DNA from: an uncultured Candidatus Saccharibacteria bacterium
GTDB lineage: Bacteria; Patescibacteriota; Minisyncoccia; Phycocordibacterales; GWA1-40-21
Assembly (NCBI GenBank): GCA_964562105.1
Contig: CAZLRP010000002.1
Coordinates: 19,222-83,221 of the forward strand
Reading direction: 5' to 3'
DNA length: 64,000 nt
Within the stretch, counting starts at the first letter, position 1. Each line of letters begins with the position of its first letter. The notes beneath the pieces were generated by a model that saw nothing but the letters and a program-made list of their open reading frames with translations, was not told the origin of the DNA and did not search any database. Made by a program: the position numbers and the translations under genes. Shown in pieces: positions 4,843 to 53,431 of this stretch.

Positions 4843-5529
4843 CTACTTACTTTTTCTCCACTCATCAATCAATTTATGATTTCCTGACAACAGAACTTTT
4901 GGAACACGATATTTTTTACCTTTATATTCCAAAACTTCAGGTCTTGTATAAATCTCACCGCTTGAAATTCTTCCTTCTTCAAGCGAAGCTTTGTTCCCAA
5001 GCACACCATCTATCTGTCTTGAAACACAATCCATGATAATCATTGCTGGAAGTTCGCCACCTGTGAGGACAAAATTTCCTACGGAAATTTTGTCCGTTTT
5101 GAATATTTTATTCACTCTTTCATCAATTCCTTCATATCTTCCGGAAATAATTATAATATCGGAATACTTTTTTGCAGATTCTTTTGCATAAGTGGTATCA
5201 AATTGTTTTCCTCTTGGACTTAAAAATATAATTTTGTATTTTGACTTTCCACTTTTAACTTTCAACTTTATAACTCTTAAGGCTTTTTCCAAAGCTTTAA
5301 GCACCGGTTCTGCTTGCATTACCATTCCTGGACCTCCACCATAAGGAATATCATCTACTCTTTTGTATGGCTTGTCTTTTTCTTTTTGCACTTTTGTAAC
5401 TTTTGCAAAATCACGTGGATTATAAAAAACTACCTTGATTTTCTTTTCTTTTATCGCGCGTGCCAAAATAGACTCATTTAAATATGAGCTGAAAGCCTCC
5501 GGAAATAATGTGATTATGTGAAATGTCAT
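4843..5529 (-). CDS. trmD: tRNA (guanine37-N1)-methyltransferase TrmD
   Basis: MTFHIITLFPEAF...DIPYGGGPGMVM...IISGRYEGIDERV. Start taken at the MTFHII Met; the ORF track extends to 5550. Confidence 0.9.
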   Translation of the reverse strand: MTFHIITLFPEAFSSYLNESILARAIKEKKIKVVFYNPRDFAKVTKVQKEKDKPYKRVDDIPYGGGPGMVMQAEPVLKALEKALRVIKLKVKSGKSKYKIIFLSPRGKQFDTTYAKESAKKYSDIIIISGRYEGIDERVNKIFKTDKISVGNFVLTGGELPAMIIMDCVSRQIDGVLGNKASLEEGRISSGEIYTRPEVLEYKGKKYRVPKVLLSGNHKLIDEWRKSK

Positions 5530-12795: not shown

Positions 12796-13497
12796 TTAAT
12801 TTGCTGACCAATCTTTGGCAGAAAGTGCGTTGTTTGCGGCAACTTGTTCTGCTTCTTGTTTTGATTTACCTTCACCTTCCGCAACTTTAGTTTTATCCAG
12901 ATATACGCCTACTGTAAACTTTTTATCGTGATCCGGGCCTTCTTCTTTTAATGTTTTATAAAGCGGCGTTATACCTTCATAATCCTGCGCCTGTTCTTGA
13001 AATTTGCTTTTTGCATCAAGCCATGTTTTTTCTTCAATTATTTTTTCTATCAGATTAAAGATGTTGTTTGAGATAAAATATTTTGCTACATCATATCCCT
13101 GATCCAAAAAAATCGCTCCGATCAAAGCCTCTATCGCATTTGCTAAAATAATCTGCCTTGCCCGTCCAACATCTTTAGCTTCGCCTTTTGAAAGCAATAA
13201 AAAATCATTCATATTTATTTTCCCCGCAGCATCCGAAAGAGTGTTCGCGTTGACAAGCGCAGATCTATAGGCAGTAAGCTCGCCTTCATTGCTGTCGGGA
13301 TATTTTACATAAAGATACTCGGTAACGATAAGTTCAAGCACGGCATCTCCTAAAAATTCCAATCTTTCGTTGTGAACCAACTCTGAATCTTTGTGTTCAT
13401 TCAAATAAGACCTGTGCGTAAAGGCTTGTTTTAATATATTTTTATCTTTAAAGATAATTCCTATTTTTTTTTCGAAGTTTGAAAAATCGGGTTTCAT
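12796..13497 (-). CDS. rnc: Ribonuclease III
   Basis: HRSY...NERLEFLGDAVLELIVTEYLY signature plus a C-terminal dsRBD (KSKFQEQAQ...GEGKSKQEAEQVAANNAL). Confidence 0.9.
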   Translation of the reverse strand: MKPDFSNFEKKIGIIFKDKNILKQAFTHRSYLNEHKDSELVHNERLEFLGDAVLELIVTEYLYVKYPDSNEGELTAYRSALVNANTLSDAAGKINMNDFLLLSKGEAKDVGRARQIILANAIEALIGAIFLDQGYDVAKYFISNNIFNLIEKIIEEKTWLDAKSKFQEQAQDYEGITPLYKTLKEEGPDHDKKFTVGVYLDKTKVAEGEGKSKQEAEQVAANNALSAKDWSAN

Positions 13498-13518: not shown

Positions 13519-13655
13519 ATCCGCACACTAATTCTATCATCGTTGCATCGTGTTCTTAATATCAGTAAATATTATGTTGTTTATTAAGTAAGTTTAATTT
13601 TATATAACTAATCTCTCTGCGCAACAAAAACACAATGATAGAGTTAGTGTGCGGA
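13519..13655. repeat. Family-A palindromic element copy 1 (about 137 bp; termini CCGCACAC...GTGTGCGG with 35-nt arm complementarity)
   Basis: Left arm tccgcacactaattctatcatcgttgcatcgtgtt and right arm gcaacaaaaacacaatgatagagttagtgtgcgga. The right 35 nt are identical to the copy at 52862-53000. The element overlaps the last 4 codons and stop of the nusB-Nudix gene and ends 22 nt before the rnc start codon. Confidence 0.7.
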
Positions 13656-14543
13656 CTTGCTACTTATTATTGTTATAGCTTTTGTGATGATCGGCAATAT
13701 ATCATTATAAAAATTAAGGTTTTGAATTTCTTGAAGCTTGAACCATTTGGCATCATCAAGGCCTCCGCTGTCTCCGCGTTTTAATTCTGTTCTCTCGGCT
13801 TTTGCAAGAAAATATATCACCTGTTTTCTTATTTTTCCTTCTTCGGGATGATTTGCCACATATTCATTTTTTAAAAGTTCATCTTCAATCGTGATATCAA
13901 TACCCATTTCTTCTTTTATTTCCCTCACCGCTCCTATTTTTGGATCTTCGCCTGCATCTATCTTTCCTTTTGAAAGAGTCCACTTCCCAAAAACATCGTG
14001 AACGAGAGCAAAATAAATATTTCCGTCTTCAACACTATAGACCACAGCTCCCGCGAGTTGTTTTATCGGCATTTGCTCAAACGGAACATCTTTATGTTTT
14101 TTAGAAACTTCGTCTTTGCCTGGCTCTCCAAGCTCTTTGTATATAGTGCCCAAAACTCCATTTATAAAGCCTCCGCTCTTTTCTCCGCTGTAAGTTTTTG
14201 CAAGCTCAATAGCTTCGTTAATTGCAACTTTTGCCGGAACTTCTTTTCTATCAGAGAACAACAGCTCATAAAGCCCCAGACGCAAAATATTTCTGTCGGC
14301 GATAGAAATTTTTTCTATCGGCCAGTCAGGCGCAGCTTTTACAATAATACTGTCCAAATCCGTTTTTTTATCAATTATTCCTTTCAAAAGATTTTCGGAA
14401 AAATTTTTTTCTGCATTTCCCTCTCCAAATTCTTTATTATTTCTTTCTAGAGATAATAAAGCTTCTTCTCTTGAAGAATTTCTAAAATCCCACTCAAAAG
14501 CGGATTGAAATACTATTGATCTTGCAAGGTGCCTGCTAAACAT
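13644..14543 (-). CDS. nusB: NusB (antitermination factor)-Nudix hydrolase fusion protein
   Basis: N-terminal half is NusB-like (ARSIVFQSAFEWDF...VAINEAIELAKTYSGEKSGGFINGVLG). C-terminal half has a Nudix box (GKWTLSKGKIDAGEDPKIGAVREIKEEMG). Confidence 0.75.
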   Translation of the reverse strand: MFSRHLARSIVFQSAFEWDFRNSSREEALLSLERNNKEFGEGNAEKNFSENLLKGIIDKKTDLDSIIVKAAPDWPIEKISIADRNILRLGLYELLFSDRKEVPAKVAINEAIELAKTYSGEKSGGFINGVLGTIYKELGEPGKDEVSKKHKDVPFEQMPIKQLAGAVVYSVEDGNIYFALVHDVFGKWTLSKGKIDAGEDPKIGAVREIKEEMGIDITIEDELLKNEYVANHPEEGKIRKQVIYFLAKAERTELKRGDSGGLDDAKWFKLQEIQNLNFYNDILPIITKAITIISSKSAH

Positions 14544-21042: not shown

Positions 21043-21079
21043 AAACATACGAATATACAAATATTACTAATGGTACAAA

Positions 21080-21158
21080 TGGCTACAAATAATTAATTCG
21101 TTTCGAATTTATTCGTAGCCATTCGTATCATTCGCATAATTCGTTAATTCGTAATAAC
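21080..21158 (+). promoter_or_regulatory. ATTCGTA heptamer direct-repeat array (motif copy A) in the thrS 5' region
   Basis: attcgtt..attcgtagcc attcgtatc attcgcata attcgtta attcgtaa with about 9-10 bp spacing, plus a flanking near-IR ATGGCTACAAATAA / TTATTCGTAGCCAT. Homologous to 29404-29449 and 36193-36250. Confidence 0.55.
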
Positions 21159-29378: not shown

Positions 29379-29403
29379 GATTGATCTGGTATTTAAATTT
29401 AAT

Positions 29404-29449
29404 TATTTGTAGCCATTTGTATCATTCGAATAATTTGTATATTCGTATG
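29404..29449 (+). promoter_or_regulatory. ATTCGTA/ATTTGTA heptamer array (motif copy B) between pheS and pheT
   Basis: ttatttgtagccatttgtatcattcgaataatttgtatattcgtatg. Same order and orientation on the + strand as copy A. Confidence 0.5.
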
Positions 29450-29456
29450 TTCATCT

Positions 29457-30221: not shown

Positions 30222-30268
30222 AACCCCAATTATACAGAATTTTTACCTTTTTGCATCATATATGTTGT

Positions 30269-30339
30269 GCCATTCCCGTGAAAACGGAAATCTAGATTGA
30301 ATTAAATTAATTTTGGATTCCCGTTTTCACGGGAATGGC
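30269..30339. repeat. Family-B REP-like palindromic element copy 1 (GCCATTCCCG...CGGGAATGGC)
   Basis: Outer IR plus two internal ATTCCCG-loop-CGGGAAT hairpins and the shared core AATCTAGATTGAATTAAATTAATTTTGGATTCCC. Confidence 0.7.
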
Positions 30340-30345
30340 AGATGT

Positions 30346-32514: not shown

Positions 32515-32587
32515 GCCACCTTAGCTCAGTTGGTAGAGCAACGCTTTTGTAAAGCGAAGGTCCCCAGTTCAAGTCTGGGAGGTGGCT
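32515..32587 (+). tRNA. tRNA-Thr (anticodon TGT)
   Basis: Cloverleaf: acceptor GCCACCT/AGGTGGC, D-arm GCTC-AGTTGGTA-GAGC, anticodon loop TTTGTAA, T-arm CCCAG-TTCAAGT-CTGGG. No encoded CCA. Confidence 0.85.
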
Positions 32588-33843: not shown

Positions 33844-33920
33844 AAATAATAAGTTTAAAAGTTGAAAGTTATAAAGTTAACACAAAAAAATAAAATCAAA
33901 CAAATACGGGAGCAATTATA

Positions 33921-36192: not shown

Positions 36193-36250
36193 TTACGAAT
36201 TATTATACTAATATACGAATTTATGCGAATGATACGAATGGCTACAAATA
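36193..36250 (-). promoter_or_regulatory. ATTCGTA heptamer array (motif copy C) abutting the rpmE start codon
   Basis: Reverse complement reads tttgtagccattcgtatcattcgcataaattcgtatattagtataataattcgtaac-ATG, nearly identical to copy A upstream of thrS. Confidence 0.55.
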
Positions 36251-36371
36251 TACACCATACGAACTATTCAGATGCAAGAATAGTACATTATTTTATAAAA
36301 AATACAAGAGCGGTTTTGGCTTCGCCAAAACCGCTCTTGTATTTTTTATTTTTCCTAAAAACTAGGACCTA

Positions 36372-37832: not shown

Positions 37833-37970
37833 GTATTATTTCTTTTCTTCCCCCACACCATTTTCAAAGAATAAATATTATTATTTAATATTAAGATTTA
37901 TATGAAAAATATATTTTTGTCTTTATTATTCACATGTAAAAATGGTGAGGGGGCTGCGACAAAAAATTAA

Positions 37971-41293: not shown

Positions 41294-41305
41294 AATTTTT
41301 TAATT

Positions 41306-41376
41306 GTCATTCCCGTGCAGACGGGAATCCAGAATTAGTTTAATACAACCTAGATTCCCGCATCCGCGGGAATGAC
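41306..41376. repeat. Family-B REP-like element copy 2 (inverted core orientation), 12 bp upstream of the SET-gene start
   Basis: gtcattcccgtgcagacgggaatccagaattagtttaatacaacctagattcccgcatccgcgggaatgac. Confidence 0.7.
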
Positions 41377-41381
41377 ACACA

Positions 41382-49083: not shown

Positions 49084-49094
49084 ATTTGTTTTGT

Positions 49095-49162
49095 GTCATT
49101 CCCGTGTAAACGGGAATCTAGGTTGAATTTTAATAATGGATTCCCGCATTCGCGGGAATGAC
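49095..49162. repeat. Family-B REP-like element copy 4, 11 bp upstream of the gatB start codon
   Basis: gtcattcccgtgtaaacgggaatctaggttgaattttaataatggattcccgcattcgcgggaatgac. Confidence 0.7.
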
Positions 49163-49290
49163 AATACAAAAATACAAATAAATAATAGCATAAAAATTAT
49201 AAAATGAGCTTCATTTTTATCCTTGACAAAAGATTTATAATGAGGTACAATTCACAAGTAGCTAAATTTGTTCTTCAAAAGGAGAAAAAC

Positions 49291-50046: not shown

Positions 50047-50055
50047 TTGTACACT

Positions 50056-50126
50056 GTCATTCCCGCGGAGGCGGGAATCTAGGTTGAATTAAATTAATTC
50101 TGGATTCCCGCCTGCACGGGAATGAC
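50056..50126. repeat. Family-B REP-like element copy 5 (most complete)
   Basis: gtcattcccgcggaggcgggaatctaggttgaattaaattaattctggattcccgcctgcacgggaatgac. Just 3' of the obg stop. Confidence 0.7.
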
Positions 50127-50133
50127 ACACGAT

Positions 50134-51147
50134 TTATTTTATAGCTCTTAGTATTTTAATCAGATTATCTTTCAGCCCTTTTATAGATTGGTCATCCAAA
50201 ACCGTCACAGTCAAAATGTTAGGATTTAACTTTGACATTTTTTTTATCGCTTGAGCTATTTTCTTATCTGCGTAAAGTCCGCGTGAAGTCCGCGTTTTTT
50301 CCGCGTCTTCCAGCAAATCTTTCTTTGTAAGGATTAGAACTTCTTTTTTTTCTGCGAGTTCTTCGCTGTAAACTTTGAGCTCATTTCTGATGACTTTGTA
50401 ATCTTTTACCAAATCTTCGCTATCAAGAGAAAGACAATGAAGCAAAGTTTTTGTCCTTTTTATATGTCTCAGAAATTTATGTCCAAGTCCCTTTCCTTCT
50501 GAAGCGCCTTCTATGAGTCCAGGAATGTCAGCCAAAATATAGCCATGCATATCTCCAAGCGAAGGTTCAAGCGTTGTAAATTGGTAAGCTCCGATTTTTG
50601 ATTTTGAATTGGTAAGGACATTTATCAAACTGGATTTTCCTGCATTTGGAAGCCCGATAAGCCCCGCATCAGCTACAAGTTCAACTTCAATGGAAAAATC
50701 CGCTTCTTCCGCAGATTTTCCGTCAGTTTGGTTTTCCGGAGATCTATTTACGGCATTTTTAAAATATTCGTTTCCAAGACCTCCCTTTCCGCCATTTAGT
50801 ATTTTTATTTTCTCGTCATCAGTAACCAGATTGAATTTTTCTCTTGTTTCAAGATTGGTAACGACAGAACCGATAGGTACATCTATTATCAAATCCGCGC
50901 CATTTTTTCCATGCATGCTTTTTTTCATTCCGTCTTCTCCTTTTTCTGCAATAAATTCTTTTGTATTTTTATATCTTGCAAGCACAGCAATATCGCGAAT
51001 GGCGCGTAAATATACATCGCCACCTTTTCCTCCATTTCCACCTGCAGGACCTGCTCTATCAATTCCCTTCTCGTGCCTCCAACGCACAACTCCGTTTCCT
51101 CCGTACCCGGCAGATATATGTATTTTTAATTCATCTATAAAAGCCAT
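50134..51147 (-). CDS. obg: GTPase Obg
   Basis: Obg fold FIDELKIHISAGYGGNG..., G-domain GLPNAGKSSL. Confidence 0.9.
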   Translation of the reverse strand: MAFIDELKIHISAGYGGNGVVRWRHEKGIDRAGPAGGNGGKGGDVYLRAIRDIAVLARYKNTKEFIAEKGEDGMKKSMHGKNGADLIIDVPIGSVVTNLETREKFNLVTDDEKIKILNGGKGGLGNEYFKNAVNRSPENQTDGKSAEEADFSIEVELVADAGLIGLPNAGKSSLINVLTNSKSKIGAYQFTTLEPSLGDMHGYILADIPGLIEGASEGKGLGHKFLRHIKRTKTLLHCLSLDSEDLVKDYKVIRNELKVYSEELAEKKEVLILTKKDLLEDAEKTRTSRGLYADKKIAQAIKKMSKLNPNILTVTVLDDQSIKGLKDNLIKILRAIK

Positions 51148-51176
51148 AATTAGTTATAAAGTTAAAAGTTATAATG

Positions 51177-51521
51177 TTATAAAGTTTTAATAAAACCAGA
51201 TAATAATCTTGAGATATCCAAGGATAGATCGTTCAATCCTGTATATTCTTTATTATCTATATATTTCAAATCTTTAGCTAATGAAAGCATGGATCTTACT
51301 TCCGCACAAGAACCTTTCGCTATATAAAAAAACTGAATAATTTCTTTATTACTTTTTCTCTCAAATCCTTCGGCGATATTATTCATAATTGAAACCCCAG
51401 CTCTTTGTATTTGATCTTTAAATGAGTAATCTTTAGAAAACTTAAAAATACAATGGACTTGCAAAGTCAAAACTTTCGCTTTTTGCCAAGCTATAATATC
51501 TTCAAATTTCTCTATCTTCAT
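51177..51521 (-). CDS. Four-helix-bundle protein (23S rRNA IVS-protein family)
   Basis: FEDIIAWQKA...QIQRAGVSIMNNIAEGFERKSNKE...IAKGSCAEV. Confidence 0.65.
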   Translation of the reverse strand: MKIEKFEDIIAWQKAKVLTLQVHCIFKFSKDYSFKDQIQRAGVSIMNNIAEGFERKSNKEIIQFFYIAKGSCAEVRSMLSLAKDLKYIDNKEYTGLNDLSLDISRLLSGFIKTL

Positions 51522-51543
51522 TTGTATTTAAACTTTATAACTT

Positions 51544-52455
51544 TCAACTTTGTACTTTATAACTTGCAAGCGCGAGCTTCGCGAGCGCGATTGCTCCCTC
51601 TTTTGACTTTGCCACGGCGACGAATCTGTCATTATGACAAAAAATTGCGCCTGAAACTCCTGTTATTTTTTCCAAATCTCCGTCTCTTTTTCCAGACCAA
51701 CTTTCTGGAAAATATATTCTTCTTTCAAATTTTGCATCAATTTTTACAACAGCTTCAACGCTCCAAGTCTTATTTGGTTTTGGAGATATTACAAAAAGCG
51801 GCTCAGAATAACTAACAACAGTTTTTTTCCATGAATAATTGTCATCTAAAATAATAATTCGCTTATCTTCAGTTTTTTTATATATGTCCCGAACAATTTC
51901 AATAGCAATATAATTATCTTTTGCACGTTTTATTTCTCTTAAAAGCATTTTTTTAACTTCTTTCACAGCAAATAAGAATGATTTTAAATGATCTCCCTTT
52001 TCTCTCCATGTAGGGTTAAGTGCATGCACATAATCAAAAAAAGAATATGGCGATATTTTTTCGAAAATATTTTTATATATTTCTACACCACTATCTTCAG
52101 CATCTACTGGTTGAATTATTTTTTCATCAATTTTATCTGCTATTTCTTGAGAGTCAGCTATTTTTTCTCCATACTCTTTCCATACTAGACCGCTAGTGGC
52201 ATAAGGAATGCCATTTCCCCTTTTTTTATTCCAACCTTCCTCATGATGATCAAACTTATTTGTTTTTGGATTATATTCTCCTCCGACATCCAGAACGAAA
52301 TCCATATCTGATAAAATTTTCTTATTTCTTGTCCTAAAAATTTTTAATGGTTTTTTTAAATATAAAGATAAAATCGCTACAGAAAATACATCGTCCGGGT
52401 GAAACCTTCCGTCATGAACCGCGACTTTTATTTTTTTACTTTTTCGTAATGTCAT
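51544..52455 (-). CDS. MYG1/UPF0160-family metal-dependent hydrolase
   Basis: VAVHDGRFHPDDVFSVAIL resembles the MYG1 GTHxGxFHxDE motif. Confidence 0.6.
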   Translation of the reverse strand: MTLRKSKKIKVAVHDGRFHPDDVFSVAILSLYLKKPLKIFRTRNKKILSDMDFVLDVGGEYNPKTNKFDHHEEGWNKKRGNGIPYATSGLVWKEYGEKIADSQEIADKIDEKIIQPVDAEDSGVEIYKNIFEKISPYSFFDYVHALNPTWREKGDHLKSFLFAVKEVKKMLLREIKRAKDNYIAIEIVRDIYKKTEDKRIIILDDNYSWKKTVVSYSEPLFVISPKPNKTWSVEAVVKIDAKFERRIYFPESWSGKRDGDLEKITGVSGAIFCHNDRFVAVAKSKEGAIALAKLALASYKVQS

Positions 52456-52852
52456 CTCTGATTTCTTCTATATCCTTTGAAATATGATCTATCTTAACCC
52501 TGACATTTGTGATTTCTTCTTCCTCTTTAGCTACCTCGGCTTCAGTTTTATCTGTTACTTTTTTTTCTTTTTTAATTCCAGAAATAATAACTCTTTCTCC
52601 AATAAGGTTTGATACAAAAAGACCTGTCATAAGTAAGATGAGCGAAGACCAAATTACTGTAACCGGTTCATAAAAAAACCAACCCAAAAAACCACCCCTT
52701 GCCATTAAAATATCGGCTGTATGCCATATTCCTCTCCATAAAAGAATAGTCCCCATCCCACCGACAAATGCGTATATTATTGATCTGTGGCTCAACCTTA
52801 TTCTTACTCTATCTTCAAGCTTGTCAAAATAACTTACTATCGATTTAAACAT
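52436..52852 (-). CDS. Small membrane protein with C-terminal coiled coil
   Basis: Two TM helices followed by a KE-rich helix. Confidence 0.4.
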   Translation of the reverse strand: MFKSIVSYFDKLEDRVRIRLSHRSIIYAFVGGMGTILLWRGIWHTADILMARGGFLGWFFYEPVTVIWSSLILLMTGLFVSNLIGERVIISGIKKEKKVTDKTEAEVAKEEEEITNVRVKIDHISKDIEEIRDDITKK

Positions 52853-52861
52853 ATGAATCTT

Positions 52862-53000
52862 GTCCGCACACCAACTCTATCATCGTTACATTGTGTTTAC
52901 AGTATCATTAAACGTCAACTTTTATTTACTAAGAAAATTTGCTTTTATTTTACAAATCTCCTTTAGCAACAAAAACACAATGATAGAGTTAGTGTGCGGA
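52862..53000. repeat. Family-A palindromic element copy 2 (about 139 bp)
   Basis: Left arm tccgcacaccaactctatcatcgttacattgtgtt; right 35 nt identical to copy 1. Ends about 10 nt before the start codon of gene 52436..52852. Confidence 0.7.
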
Positions 53001-53137
53001 TTAATTAAATTTAATAATGTAAGCATTATACACTAAAAACAATTAAAAAAAATGAGCTGTTTGTGAGTACACAACAGCCCAATGCAAAAGTATCAAAAGA
53101 TAGAAATATCGTTAAAAATCAACAGTTTTTATGATTC

Positions 53138-53431
53138 TTATAAGATAATTTTCTTTTTAAACGCTCTCCGTAATTTTATCTTTTTGTTTTTTATAGATTC
53201 AAGTTTTTTCTTATTAAATTTTTTATATTTGCAAACAGCATTAAGAACTTCTTCAATATCAGCAATTTCATCAATAGTTTCGTTATCTAAAAATTCTTTT
53301 ACTTCTTCAGTCAACTTATTTTTAAGTTTTTGCCAATATTCTTCATCACCAGCAATATGAAAACTGACTTTTTCACCTTTGCTTTTTATATATTCAGGAA
53401 TTTTGTCTCTTACTAATTTATTATATTTCAT
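53138..53431 (-). CDS. MazG-like nucleotide pyrophosphohydrolase (small, all-alpha)
   Basis: MKYNKLVRDKIPEYI ... EEVKEFLDNE...EIADIEEVLNAV. Confidence 0.55.
   Translation of the reverse strand: MKYNKLVRDKIPEYIKSKGEKVSFHIAGDEEYWQKLKNKLTEEVKEFLDNETIDEIADIEEVLNAVCKYKKFNKKKLESIKNKKIKLRRAFKKKIIL

Follow-up and report, generated by a model that had tools for sequence, protein, structure and literature searches.

A MITE-like mobile palindrome and possible cis-acting mRNA hairpin in Patescibacteria

Why does the same long palindrome stand just ahead of a start codon at two loci of one bacterial contig, and does this position mean that the genes need it? The window, that is the whole 64-kb stretch of DNA analyzed here, contains two copies of the element, copy 1 of 136 nt (13520..13655, − strand) and copy 2, a 138-nt palindrome at positions 52863-53000 that is read on the − strand, in the direction of the flanking genes. 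A previous sequence-only reading had placed the start of copy 2 at 52862, and the measured end differs from this by 1 nt; the element itself is recovered by its arm pattern, by comparison between the copies and by a score of 142 bits with covariance model R1. The two copies are alike in architecture, as had been noted, with the same orientation on the + strand and all flanking genes on the − strand, and the right arm, described as perfectly conserved, is identical at all 35 positions (52966-53000 against 13621-13655 of copy 1).

Read on the − strand, copy 2 consists of the arm TCCGCACACTAACTCTATCAT, a subterminal block TGTGTTTTTGTTGC, an AT-rich core, the motif AAACACA, an 8-nt segment AATGTAAC and the second arm ATGATAGAGTTGGTGTGCGGA. 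These parts form a 21-bp terminal stem, a one-sided bulge of 8 nt, a 6-bp inner helix and the AT-rich core. In transcript sense, the 5' arm of the terminal stem lies at 52980..53000 and its partner, the 3' arm, at 52863..52883, with one G-U pair on the sense strand; the conserved block of the 5' arm reaches further, to 52966 (…TGTGTTTTTGTTGC), and it is over this length that all 35 positions match copy 1. The asymmetric bulge occupies 52884-52891, and the inner helix joins TGTGTT (52974..52979) to AACACA (52892..52897), as deduced from pairing in an alignment of eight copies and from RNAalifold; one of its pairs covaries, from G-C to A-U in three copies. The bulge contains the motif GCAAC in six of the eight copies, complementary to GTTGC of the 5' arm, and the alternative inner helix GTTGC/GCAAC is 91% paired and shows no covariation.

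The arm pattern TCCGCACACYAACTCTATCAT, searched with up to three mismatches, has four matches in the window versus 0.00 expected from 100 shuffles, and these correspond to both arms of copies 1 and 2, with no further arms there. The transcript-sense strand of copy 2 folds at −56.5 kcal/mol (z = −8.6) and that of copy 1 at −44.9 kcal/mol (z = −7.1), and the opposite (+) strand also folds well, with z values of −6.6 and −5.3 for the two window copies. The element does not belong to any Rfam family at gathering score: the scan of the whole window at this threshold matched only a tRNA (32515-32587), and a permissive scan of the local region (E up to 10) gave only sub-threshold matches, such as MIR530 (23.9 bits vs 85) and ncr1015 (24.2 bits vs 60).

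The nature of the element becomes evident from its neighborhood at copy 1 (site A), which is inserted into the last codons of nusB-NUDIX and supplies the ending Ser-Ala-His-stop, its other end lying 22 nt ahead of the ATG of rnc, the gene of RNase III (12796-13497, with catalytic and dsRNA-binding domains). The NusB protein is here fused to a C-terminal NUDIX hydrolase domain (window 13644-14543), and both domains are found in each of the 120 listed homologues. In the related locus L003 the element lies in the same place between nusB-NUDIX and rnc, and this allele can be compared with that of L013, the rnc genes of the two being 95% identical in nucleotides. The filled allele of L003 reads CAGTAAA[TCCG…CGGA]TAAAAATGATAAG and the empty allele of L013 reads CAGTAAAAATGATAAG; at the junction, …AAGCAGTAAA[TCCG…CGGA]TAAAAATGATAAGTAAAATATTCTATG in L003 is set against …AAGCAGTAAAAATGATAAGTAAAATATTTTATG in L013. 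Since the filled allele exceeds the empty one by precisely the element and one additional TAAA, the element has been inserted with a 4-bp target duplication. The insertion swapped the C-terminus …SSKNDK of NusB-NUDIX for …SSKS(A/E)H, with the stop codon coming from the arm, and the ending SAH occurs in two of the 120 NusB-NUDIX homologues, namely the window protein and P0323. L003 (JAGVNG010000018.1) is titled Nanoarchaeota archaeon, yet it carries bacterial nusB, rnc and rpmF genes, and the protein relatives of L013 (k141_534983), with its closely similar rnc, are named Paceibacterota; the bin label of L003 is probably wrong.

Besides L013, the site of copy 1 is empty also in L019, and in other relatives the element lies elsewhere around rnc. 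Locus L008 lacks it between nusB-NUDIX and rnc and has it right behind rnc at site C, 1 nt past the stop codon, with the next ATG 8 nt further on, while L024, which was reached via P0323, has two more copies. One of these (site A2) lies at the stop codon of nusB-NUDIX at a junction other than that of site A and likewise gives the protein the C-terminus Ser-Ala-His-stop; the other (site D) lies between a terminator and the rpmF promoter, with the flanks TTTA and TTTG. In L026, whose NusB-NUDIX is 94% identical to that of L024, sites A2 and D are empty and a copy follows rnc at site C, with TAAA on both sides as in L008. The spacer between nusB-NUDIX and rnc consists of 102-109 nt of unrelated AT-rich sequence in L016 (9899-10000) and L008 (899-1007), versus 8-24 nt at other empty sites; these long spacers may represent another element or an insertion that has decayed.

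Altogether, the eight copies of the family occupy five independent sites (A, A2, B, C and D, site B being that of copy 2), all in one orientation relative to the neighboring genes and each site with known empty alleles. The copies are 118-139 nt long, with an AT-rich core and no conserved ORF. The insertion targets are A-rich and TAAA-like (G/TAAA/AA, with the duplicated 4 bp set off), and at sites B, A2 and D the duplication is imperfect, with a match in two or three of the four positions. A short non-coding sequence with terminal inverted repeats, a target duplication visible from filled and empty alleles and several non-homologous, variable sites are the hallmarks of a MITE, and we therefore regard the element, with high confidence, as a mobile, non-autonomous, MITE-like element. 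The most suitable classification is that of a new MITE family, present in few copies within a small clade of Paceibacteria-type (Patescibacteria) bacteria; the source records of proteins homologous to the flanking ones carry the names Paceibacterota or Patescibacteria. No IS family is assigned, because a 4-bp duplication fits several of them.

The relatives' rnc loci were fetched through their proteins. A scan of genome and metagenome collections with an exact 19-mer of the arm gave ten matches, two of them true copies (L003 and L008) and the others chance matches to a single arm; the same scan of viral contigs returned no copies of the element. These exact 19-mer scans of genome, metagenome and viral collections, which miss diverged ends, found no transposase-encoding element with the same inverted repeats, and an nhmmer profile together with model R1, applied to the window and to related loci totaling about 220 kb, found no further copies. 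The density of copies is thus low, with two in the 64-kb window and zero to two per 20 kb in relatives. Finding L003 and L008 by exact arm 19-mer, and L024 by its arm-encoded C-terminus, biases the sample to conserved arms, and decayed copies would score as unrelated spacers, as is possible for the nusB-rnc spacers of L016 and L008; L023 and L026, reached through neighboring proteins, carry no bias to intact arms. Three of the five independent sites flank rnc. Site A comes from the window and site C (L008) from a DNA scan blind to gene content, whereas site A2 counts less for such clustering because it was found by a search aimed at that junction; moreover, in one lineage no more than 3 kb separates sites C, A2 and D, and the clustering near rnc could have arisen from local hopping.

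We now turn to the locus of copy 2, which stops 10 nt (52853-52862) ahead of the ATG (52850-52852) of a 138-aa gene (52436..52852, − strand), as previously noted. This gene is the first of a run that continues with MYG1 (51544-52455), a PF05635 gene and obg. Its earlier label of membrane protein has no family match behind it, the sole basis being the names given by JGI to its homologues and the presence of hydrophobic stretches; the label MazG-like for the 97-aa ORF upstream (53138..53431, − strand) is not confirmed, since this ORF has no significant Pfam, NCBIfam or PDB sequence match. The transcript of the 97-aa ORF is predicted to end at a terminator-like hairpin with U8 (53044..53081, − strand; hairpin at 53053-53081, −15.3 kcal/mol, z = −4.2, with U8 at 53045-52), and L022 has a hairpin with T-run in the equivalent place, ahead of GTGTATAAT. 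The latter sequence precedes the homologue of the 138-aa gene in every site B locus compared, filled or empty. Its counterpart in the window, TAGTGTATAAT (53025..53035, − strand), contains a TATAAT −10 box at 53025-53030 that is the probable promoter of the downstream operon; a consensus promoter scan did not list it, as it has no −35 match. The likely order of site B is thus terminator of the upstream gene, promoter, element, 10 nt and AUG. Because it follows both the terminator-like hairpin and the conserved TATAAT box, copy 2 is probably part of the 5' leader of the transcript encoding the putative membrane protein, MYG1 and obg, and would constitute the bulk of a leader of about 165 nt, compared with about 25-35 nt at empty sites. 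In this predicted leader the hairpin folds independently and the start codon stays unpaired.

Many window genes have a TATAAT-like box within 20 nt of their ATG, and a GGAG, GAGG or AGGA motif is found within 18 nt of the start codon in only three of 57 crude gene calls of the whole window, which suggests that the host translates without Shine-Dalgarno sites, from mRNAs that are leaderless or have very short leaders.

Site B also varies among relatives. It is filled in the window and in L023 (a 550-kb contig, with a 138-aa protein 74% identical), where a diverged copy of 118 nt has the same junctions, …AATTAA followed by the element and CAAAATTCAGATG versus CAAGATTCATATG in the window. Copy 2 is flanked upstream by TTAA (53001..53004, − strand) and downstream, in transcript sense, by CAAG (52859-52862), L023 having TTAA and CAAA at the same places; the flanks of copy 2 may represent a decayed 4-bp target duplication. 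The site is empty in L022, L028, L030-L032 and the genome encoding P0131. The called N-terminus of P0131, VYNSFIIKFNENIKM, is the translation of GTGTATAAT… running straight into the ATG, and longer homologues of the 138-aa protein do not read into the element, for their extra length is mostly C-terminal and the extension of P0131 translates an empty site. The independent Logan assemblies of SRR13007705 break within both arms of copy 2, as expected of a repeat.

Further along the same operon, the gene of a 114-aa PF05635 (23S_rRNA_IVP) protein (51177-51521) lies between MYG1 and obg, is present in L023 and absent in L022 and L028, and is bracketed by AAAGTTGAAAGTTATAAAGTT-type repeats (51139-51174 and 51521-51565), which recur in the window at 5231-5288 and 33844-33896; gene and repeats may constitute a small mobile cassette. 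The window contains other repeats too. An unrelated family of four copies, 73-95% alike (30268-30340, 41305-41377, 49094-49163 and 50055-50127), consists of palindromes of about 73 nt with two GC-rich hairpins, TGTCATTCCCG…CGGGAATC…GATTCCCG…CGGGAATGACA. A 104-nt palindrome at 37850-37953 (− strand), AT-rich in its core and GC-rich over its 15-nt ends (CCCCCTCACCATTTT…AAAATGGTGTGGGGG), comes immediately after a terminator-like hairpin; it is a borderline match to model R1 (29.9 bits), similar in build to the element and different in sequence, and may be a single copy of another MITE-like family. Near-identical pairs of GC-rich hairpins with T-runs (22958-23010/24851-24903, 94%; 49489-49526/50011-50048, 97%) look like terminators reused at different genes, and an AT-rich repeat with GTAGCCATTTGTATCATTCG occurs at three intergenic places in both orientations (21044-21139, 29399-29451 and 36218-36266).

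What, then, does the closeness to start codons mean? It had been taken, as a placement conserved at both loci, to argue for a cis-acting RNA role. The argument fails on the comparison with relatives, for the element is a mobile insertion absent from most of them at both loci, and the distance is not conserved either, the next ATG lying at 8, 10, 22 or 24 nt, or, where a promoter intervenes, at about 80 nt. In a gene-dense genome with short A-rich spacers, any insertion into a TAAA-like target there is expected to fall close to a start codon. Given this expectation and the lack of the insertion in most relatives, the element is not a dedicated regulatory leader of these genes, and the hairpin, judging by its patchy presence, is dispensable to the host at these loci.

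The proposed role in cis has nonetheless a part that stands, namely selection on the paired structure of an element lying in the position of an mRNA leader. In the alignment of the eight copies, 95.8% of the cells of the 21-bp stem and 6-bp inner helix are paired, and six of the 27 stem pairs show compensatory changes, with both sides altered and the pair kept, a number reached in none of 500 shuffles; sliding the partner columns by 1-3 positions lowers pairing to 30-46%. RNAalifold independently recovers the same fold, including the asymmetric 8-nt bulge. Between the window and L003 at site A, arm identity is 0.96 and core identity 0.63, with 0.53-0.57 at four-fold sites of the adjoining genes; between the window and L023 at site B, the values are 0.86 for the arms, 0.68 for the core, which has a 20-nt deletion in addition, and 0.40-0.45 for the four-fold sites; between L008 and L026 at site C, they are 0.83, 0.72 and 0.53, respectively. 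Three of the compensated pairs are found in L023 and one in L026, and the T-to-C changes that restore pairs oppose the AT bias of a genome of 34% GC. These comparisons show what appears, at the level of sequence, to be purifying selection with compensatory substitutions that keeps the arms paired where an insertion persists at the same site, with the core left to drift.

Two qualifications apply. The pair at stem position 10 occurs as U-A, U-G and C-G, a series tolerated only in sense-strand RNA, and two further G-U pairs are found on the sense strand; the evidence for one strand is weak, because a C·A mismatch of copy 1 would be G-U on the other strand. Furthermore, the pattern at site A, filled in the window and L003 and empty in L013, the sister of L003, fits either a precise loss or two insertions in a hot spot, and if there were two independent insertions the conservation at this site would be uninformative on selection in place.

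A mechanism by which the hairpin might act can be outlined as follows. Copy 2 would have landed between the TATAAT promoter (53025-53030) and the start codon of the 138-aa gene, and would be transcribed as an interrupted hairpin of about 27 bp, some 18-25 nt from the mRNA 5' end and 10 nt before the AUG. The hairpin would then affect its own mRNA in cis by offering a double-stranded site for cleavage or binding to RNase III, whose action would set half-life and processing of the flanking cistrons, as with Correia elements in Neisseria, and next to rnc it might feed back on RNase III itself. With a 21-bp lower and a 6-bp upper stem, amounting to about two turns or more, the helix is long enough for this enzyme, its transcript context being inferred from terminator, −10 box and operon layout. 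RNase III is favored since it is encoded in the window and the element repeatedly adjoins its gene, and by analogy with known systems we name it, tentatively and with less than even confidence, as the acting enzyme; arm sequence, chiefly ATCATTGTGTTTTTGTTGC, is conserved beyond the simple need for pairing, and this counts against a pure RNase III hairpin, which needs pairing only. Two other roles in the transcript were discarded. A terminator would require a U-run, and none follows the hairpin, the sense 3' flanks being CAAGAUUC, UAAAAAU and UUUGCCC; a terminator scan of 52700-53300 found none either. Masking of a Shine-Dalgarno site is at odds with the rarity of such motifs in the 57 crude gene calls and with a hairpin that leaves the AUG unpaired.

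That the transcribed hairpin is under selection at the level of the host is, on the patterns of substitution described above, a claim for which we see even chances. The combined reading, from a MITE-like element up to and including a selected cis-acting mRNA hairpin, is the one we lean to, if only slightly; being derived from a transposon, the hairpin may have acquired a cis effect on RNA or may simply impose one. It would be a much bolder step to propose that streamlined Patescibacteria have taken over a transposable hairpin family as a portable control module for RNase III, linking rnc autoregulation to other operons. This speculation, which we consider improbable, would draw on repeated independent insertion on both sides of rnc and into the operon of MYG1 (of an RNA-exonuclease family) and obg (a ribosome-assembly GTPase), and on a putative selection that keeps the arms in sequence as well as in pairing.

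The main rival is a purely selfish and neutral MITE, in which the arms are alike through descent of transposition-competent copies, shared copies are recent independent insertions in hot spots and the hairpin RNA is a by-product. Presence is indeed patchy at every site, to the point that L003 is filled and L013 empty with rnc genes 95% identical; the similar targets G/TAAA/AA render hot spots plausible; the sample is partly biased to intact arms; and in the window group core similarity is no higher within a site than between sites (0.63-0.68 throughout). We nevertheless consider neutrality rather unlikely, on account of site B, where the window and L023 share the imperfect junctions TTAA and CAAR, pointing to one old insertion, and where L023, found via a neighboring protein, still has arms of 86% identity with three compensated pairs next to four-fold sites of 40-45%. 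The copies at site C (L008 and L026, the latter also found via a protein) add one compensated pair, and the arms remain GC-rich in a genome of 34% GC. The compensatory changes also weigh against a palindrome that works at the DNA level, by extrusion of cruciforms or hairpins or by binding a protein, in recombination, replication or the nucleoid (for example as an integron attC-like site or a pair of operators), since they indicate base pairing and not two half-sites. Such a DNA element would account for the good folding of both strands (z = −6.6 and −5.3 for the + strand), for the weakness of the one-strand G-U evidence and for conserved arm sequence, which fits recognition by a protein, and a single orientation could follow the direction of replication. 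It is quite improbable, however, for an element that carries no cargo gene, inserts by itself and leaves a 4-bp duplication, lies mostly in transcribed spacers within operons or leaders and has arm ends that, by eye, are unlike attC core sites (CACTAAC vs RYYYAAC and GTTAGTG vs GTTRRRY).

Two remaining explanations fare worse on the same body of evidence. An outward-facing promoter within the element, as in some Correia and IS ends, could drive the downstream gene, and copy 2 does contain TTGACG-17 nt-CACAAT (9 of 12 matches; 52918-52890, − strand) facing the 138-aa gene; yet three such matches in the region compare with 3.3 expected by chance, the motif is not conserved in copy 1 or in the copies of L023, L008 and L024, and a better box, the conserved TATAAT, precedes the element and is retained where the site is empty, so that we give the internal promoter very little credence. 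The least credible explanation is an immobile RNA dedicated to the two window operons, either cis-regulatory (a leader, attenuator or terminator) or from a separate small-RNA gene. Strong folding and the position just upstream of start codons would suit it, but it is already contradicted by the empty sites of close relatives at both loci and is further weakened by the occurrence of the element at other positions in relatives, by the missing U-tract in the sense direction, by Rfam matches of chance level only, with none at gathering score, and by the want of Shine-Dalgarno sites to mask (three in 57 crude gene calls). The reading we retain is thus that of a mobile MITE-like element which, once inserted, may be held as a paired RNA.

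Patescibacteria (CPR) have small genomes that are usually thought poor in mobile DNA and known regulators. The family analyzed here provides a documented MITE example in these bacteria, with exact filled and empty alleles; our full-text literature search found no description of MITEs in Patescibacteria, which is weak negative evidence. If arm conservation and clustering near rnc reflect function, the element would represent a simple, transposon-borne form of post-transcriptional control where gene regulation is hardly known. In practice, short-read assemblies are interrupted at the arms, and the element gives rise to spurious differences at the ends of genes.

Among known systems, REP/BIME sequences are imperfect palindromes of 20-40 nt without target duplication, mobilized by the RAYT transposase, and the present element, with about 136 nt and a 4-bp duplication, does not belong to them. 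Rickettsia palindromic elements (RPE) are small palindromic mobile elements that can enter coding sequence and be translated, as copy 1 and the A2 copy of L024 also are; RPEs lengthen proteins by peptide segments through in-frame insertion within genes, whereas the present element clips only the last codons and brings its own stop codon, and the sequences are unrelated. The autoregulatory hairpin of the E. coli rnc leader and the intercistronic RNase III sites of phage T7 are long helices that are fixed operon features and not mobile. They resemble the present hairpin in having an asymmetric internal loop that splits the helix into lower and upper stems, as in T7 R1.1-type sites, and an element adjoining rnc would allow a similar feedback of RNase III; in contrast, the lower stem is much longer here (21 bp), the loop is much larger and cleavage is only predicted.

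The likeness to Correia elements (CREE/NEMIS) of Neisseria is broader, for these too are non-coding, measure about 100-155 bp, enclose a variable core between terminal inverted repeats of about 20-26 bp, target intergenic spacers and gene ends and vary in presence among related genomes. Correia elements duplicate a TA target, while the present element duplicates 4 bp (TAAA) and resides in a Paceibacteria-like host; their copy number exceeds 100 per Neisseria genome, as opposed to two in 64 kb here. The arms TCCGCACACTAA… are unrelated to the end and core motifs that PMC2649163 gives for Correia elements, and neither an IHF site nor an end-generated promoter was recognized in the present element. 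Membership of the Correia family is thus rejected, arms, duplication size and host all being different. The functional parallel concerns elements that sit between a native promoter and its gene and are co-transcribed as a hairpin, with cleavage or binding by RNase III known in Neisseria (PMC2649163; PMC10969869) and proposed for the present element; in particular, a Correia element located downstream of the native mtrCDE promoter and ahead of the genes is carried in the mRNA, where RNase III cleaves it (PMC2649163; PMC10969869). ERIC/IRU and related palindromic MITEs of enterobacteria or Yersinia, of about 127 bp, are similarly co-transcribed with flanking genes as long RNA hairpins, with an effect on mRNA level that varies with their orientation (PMC10969869; PMC2229807). 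They have no sequence similarity with the present element, which has been seen so far in one orientation only, and their reported effects in Yersinia occur via RNase E sites and not RNase III. In its overall behavior, the present element is like Correia and ERIC sequences, rewriting the C-terminus of a protein and apparently adding a long hairpin to mRNA leaders and intercistronic spacers.
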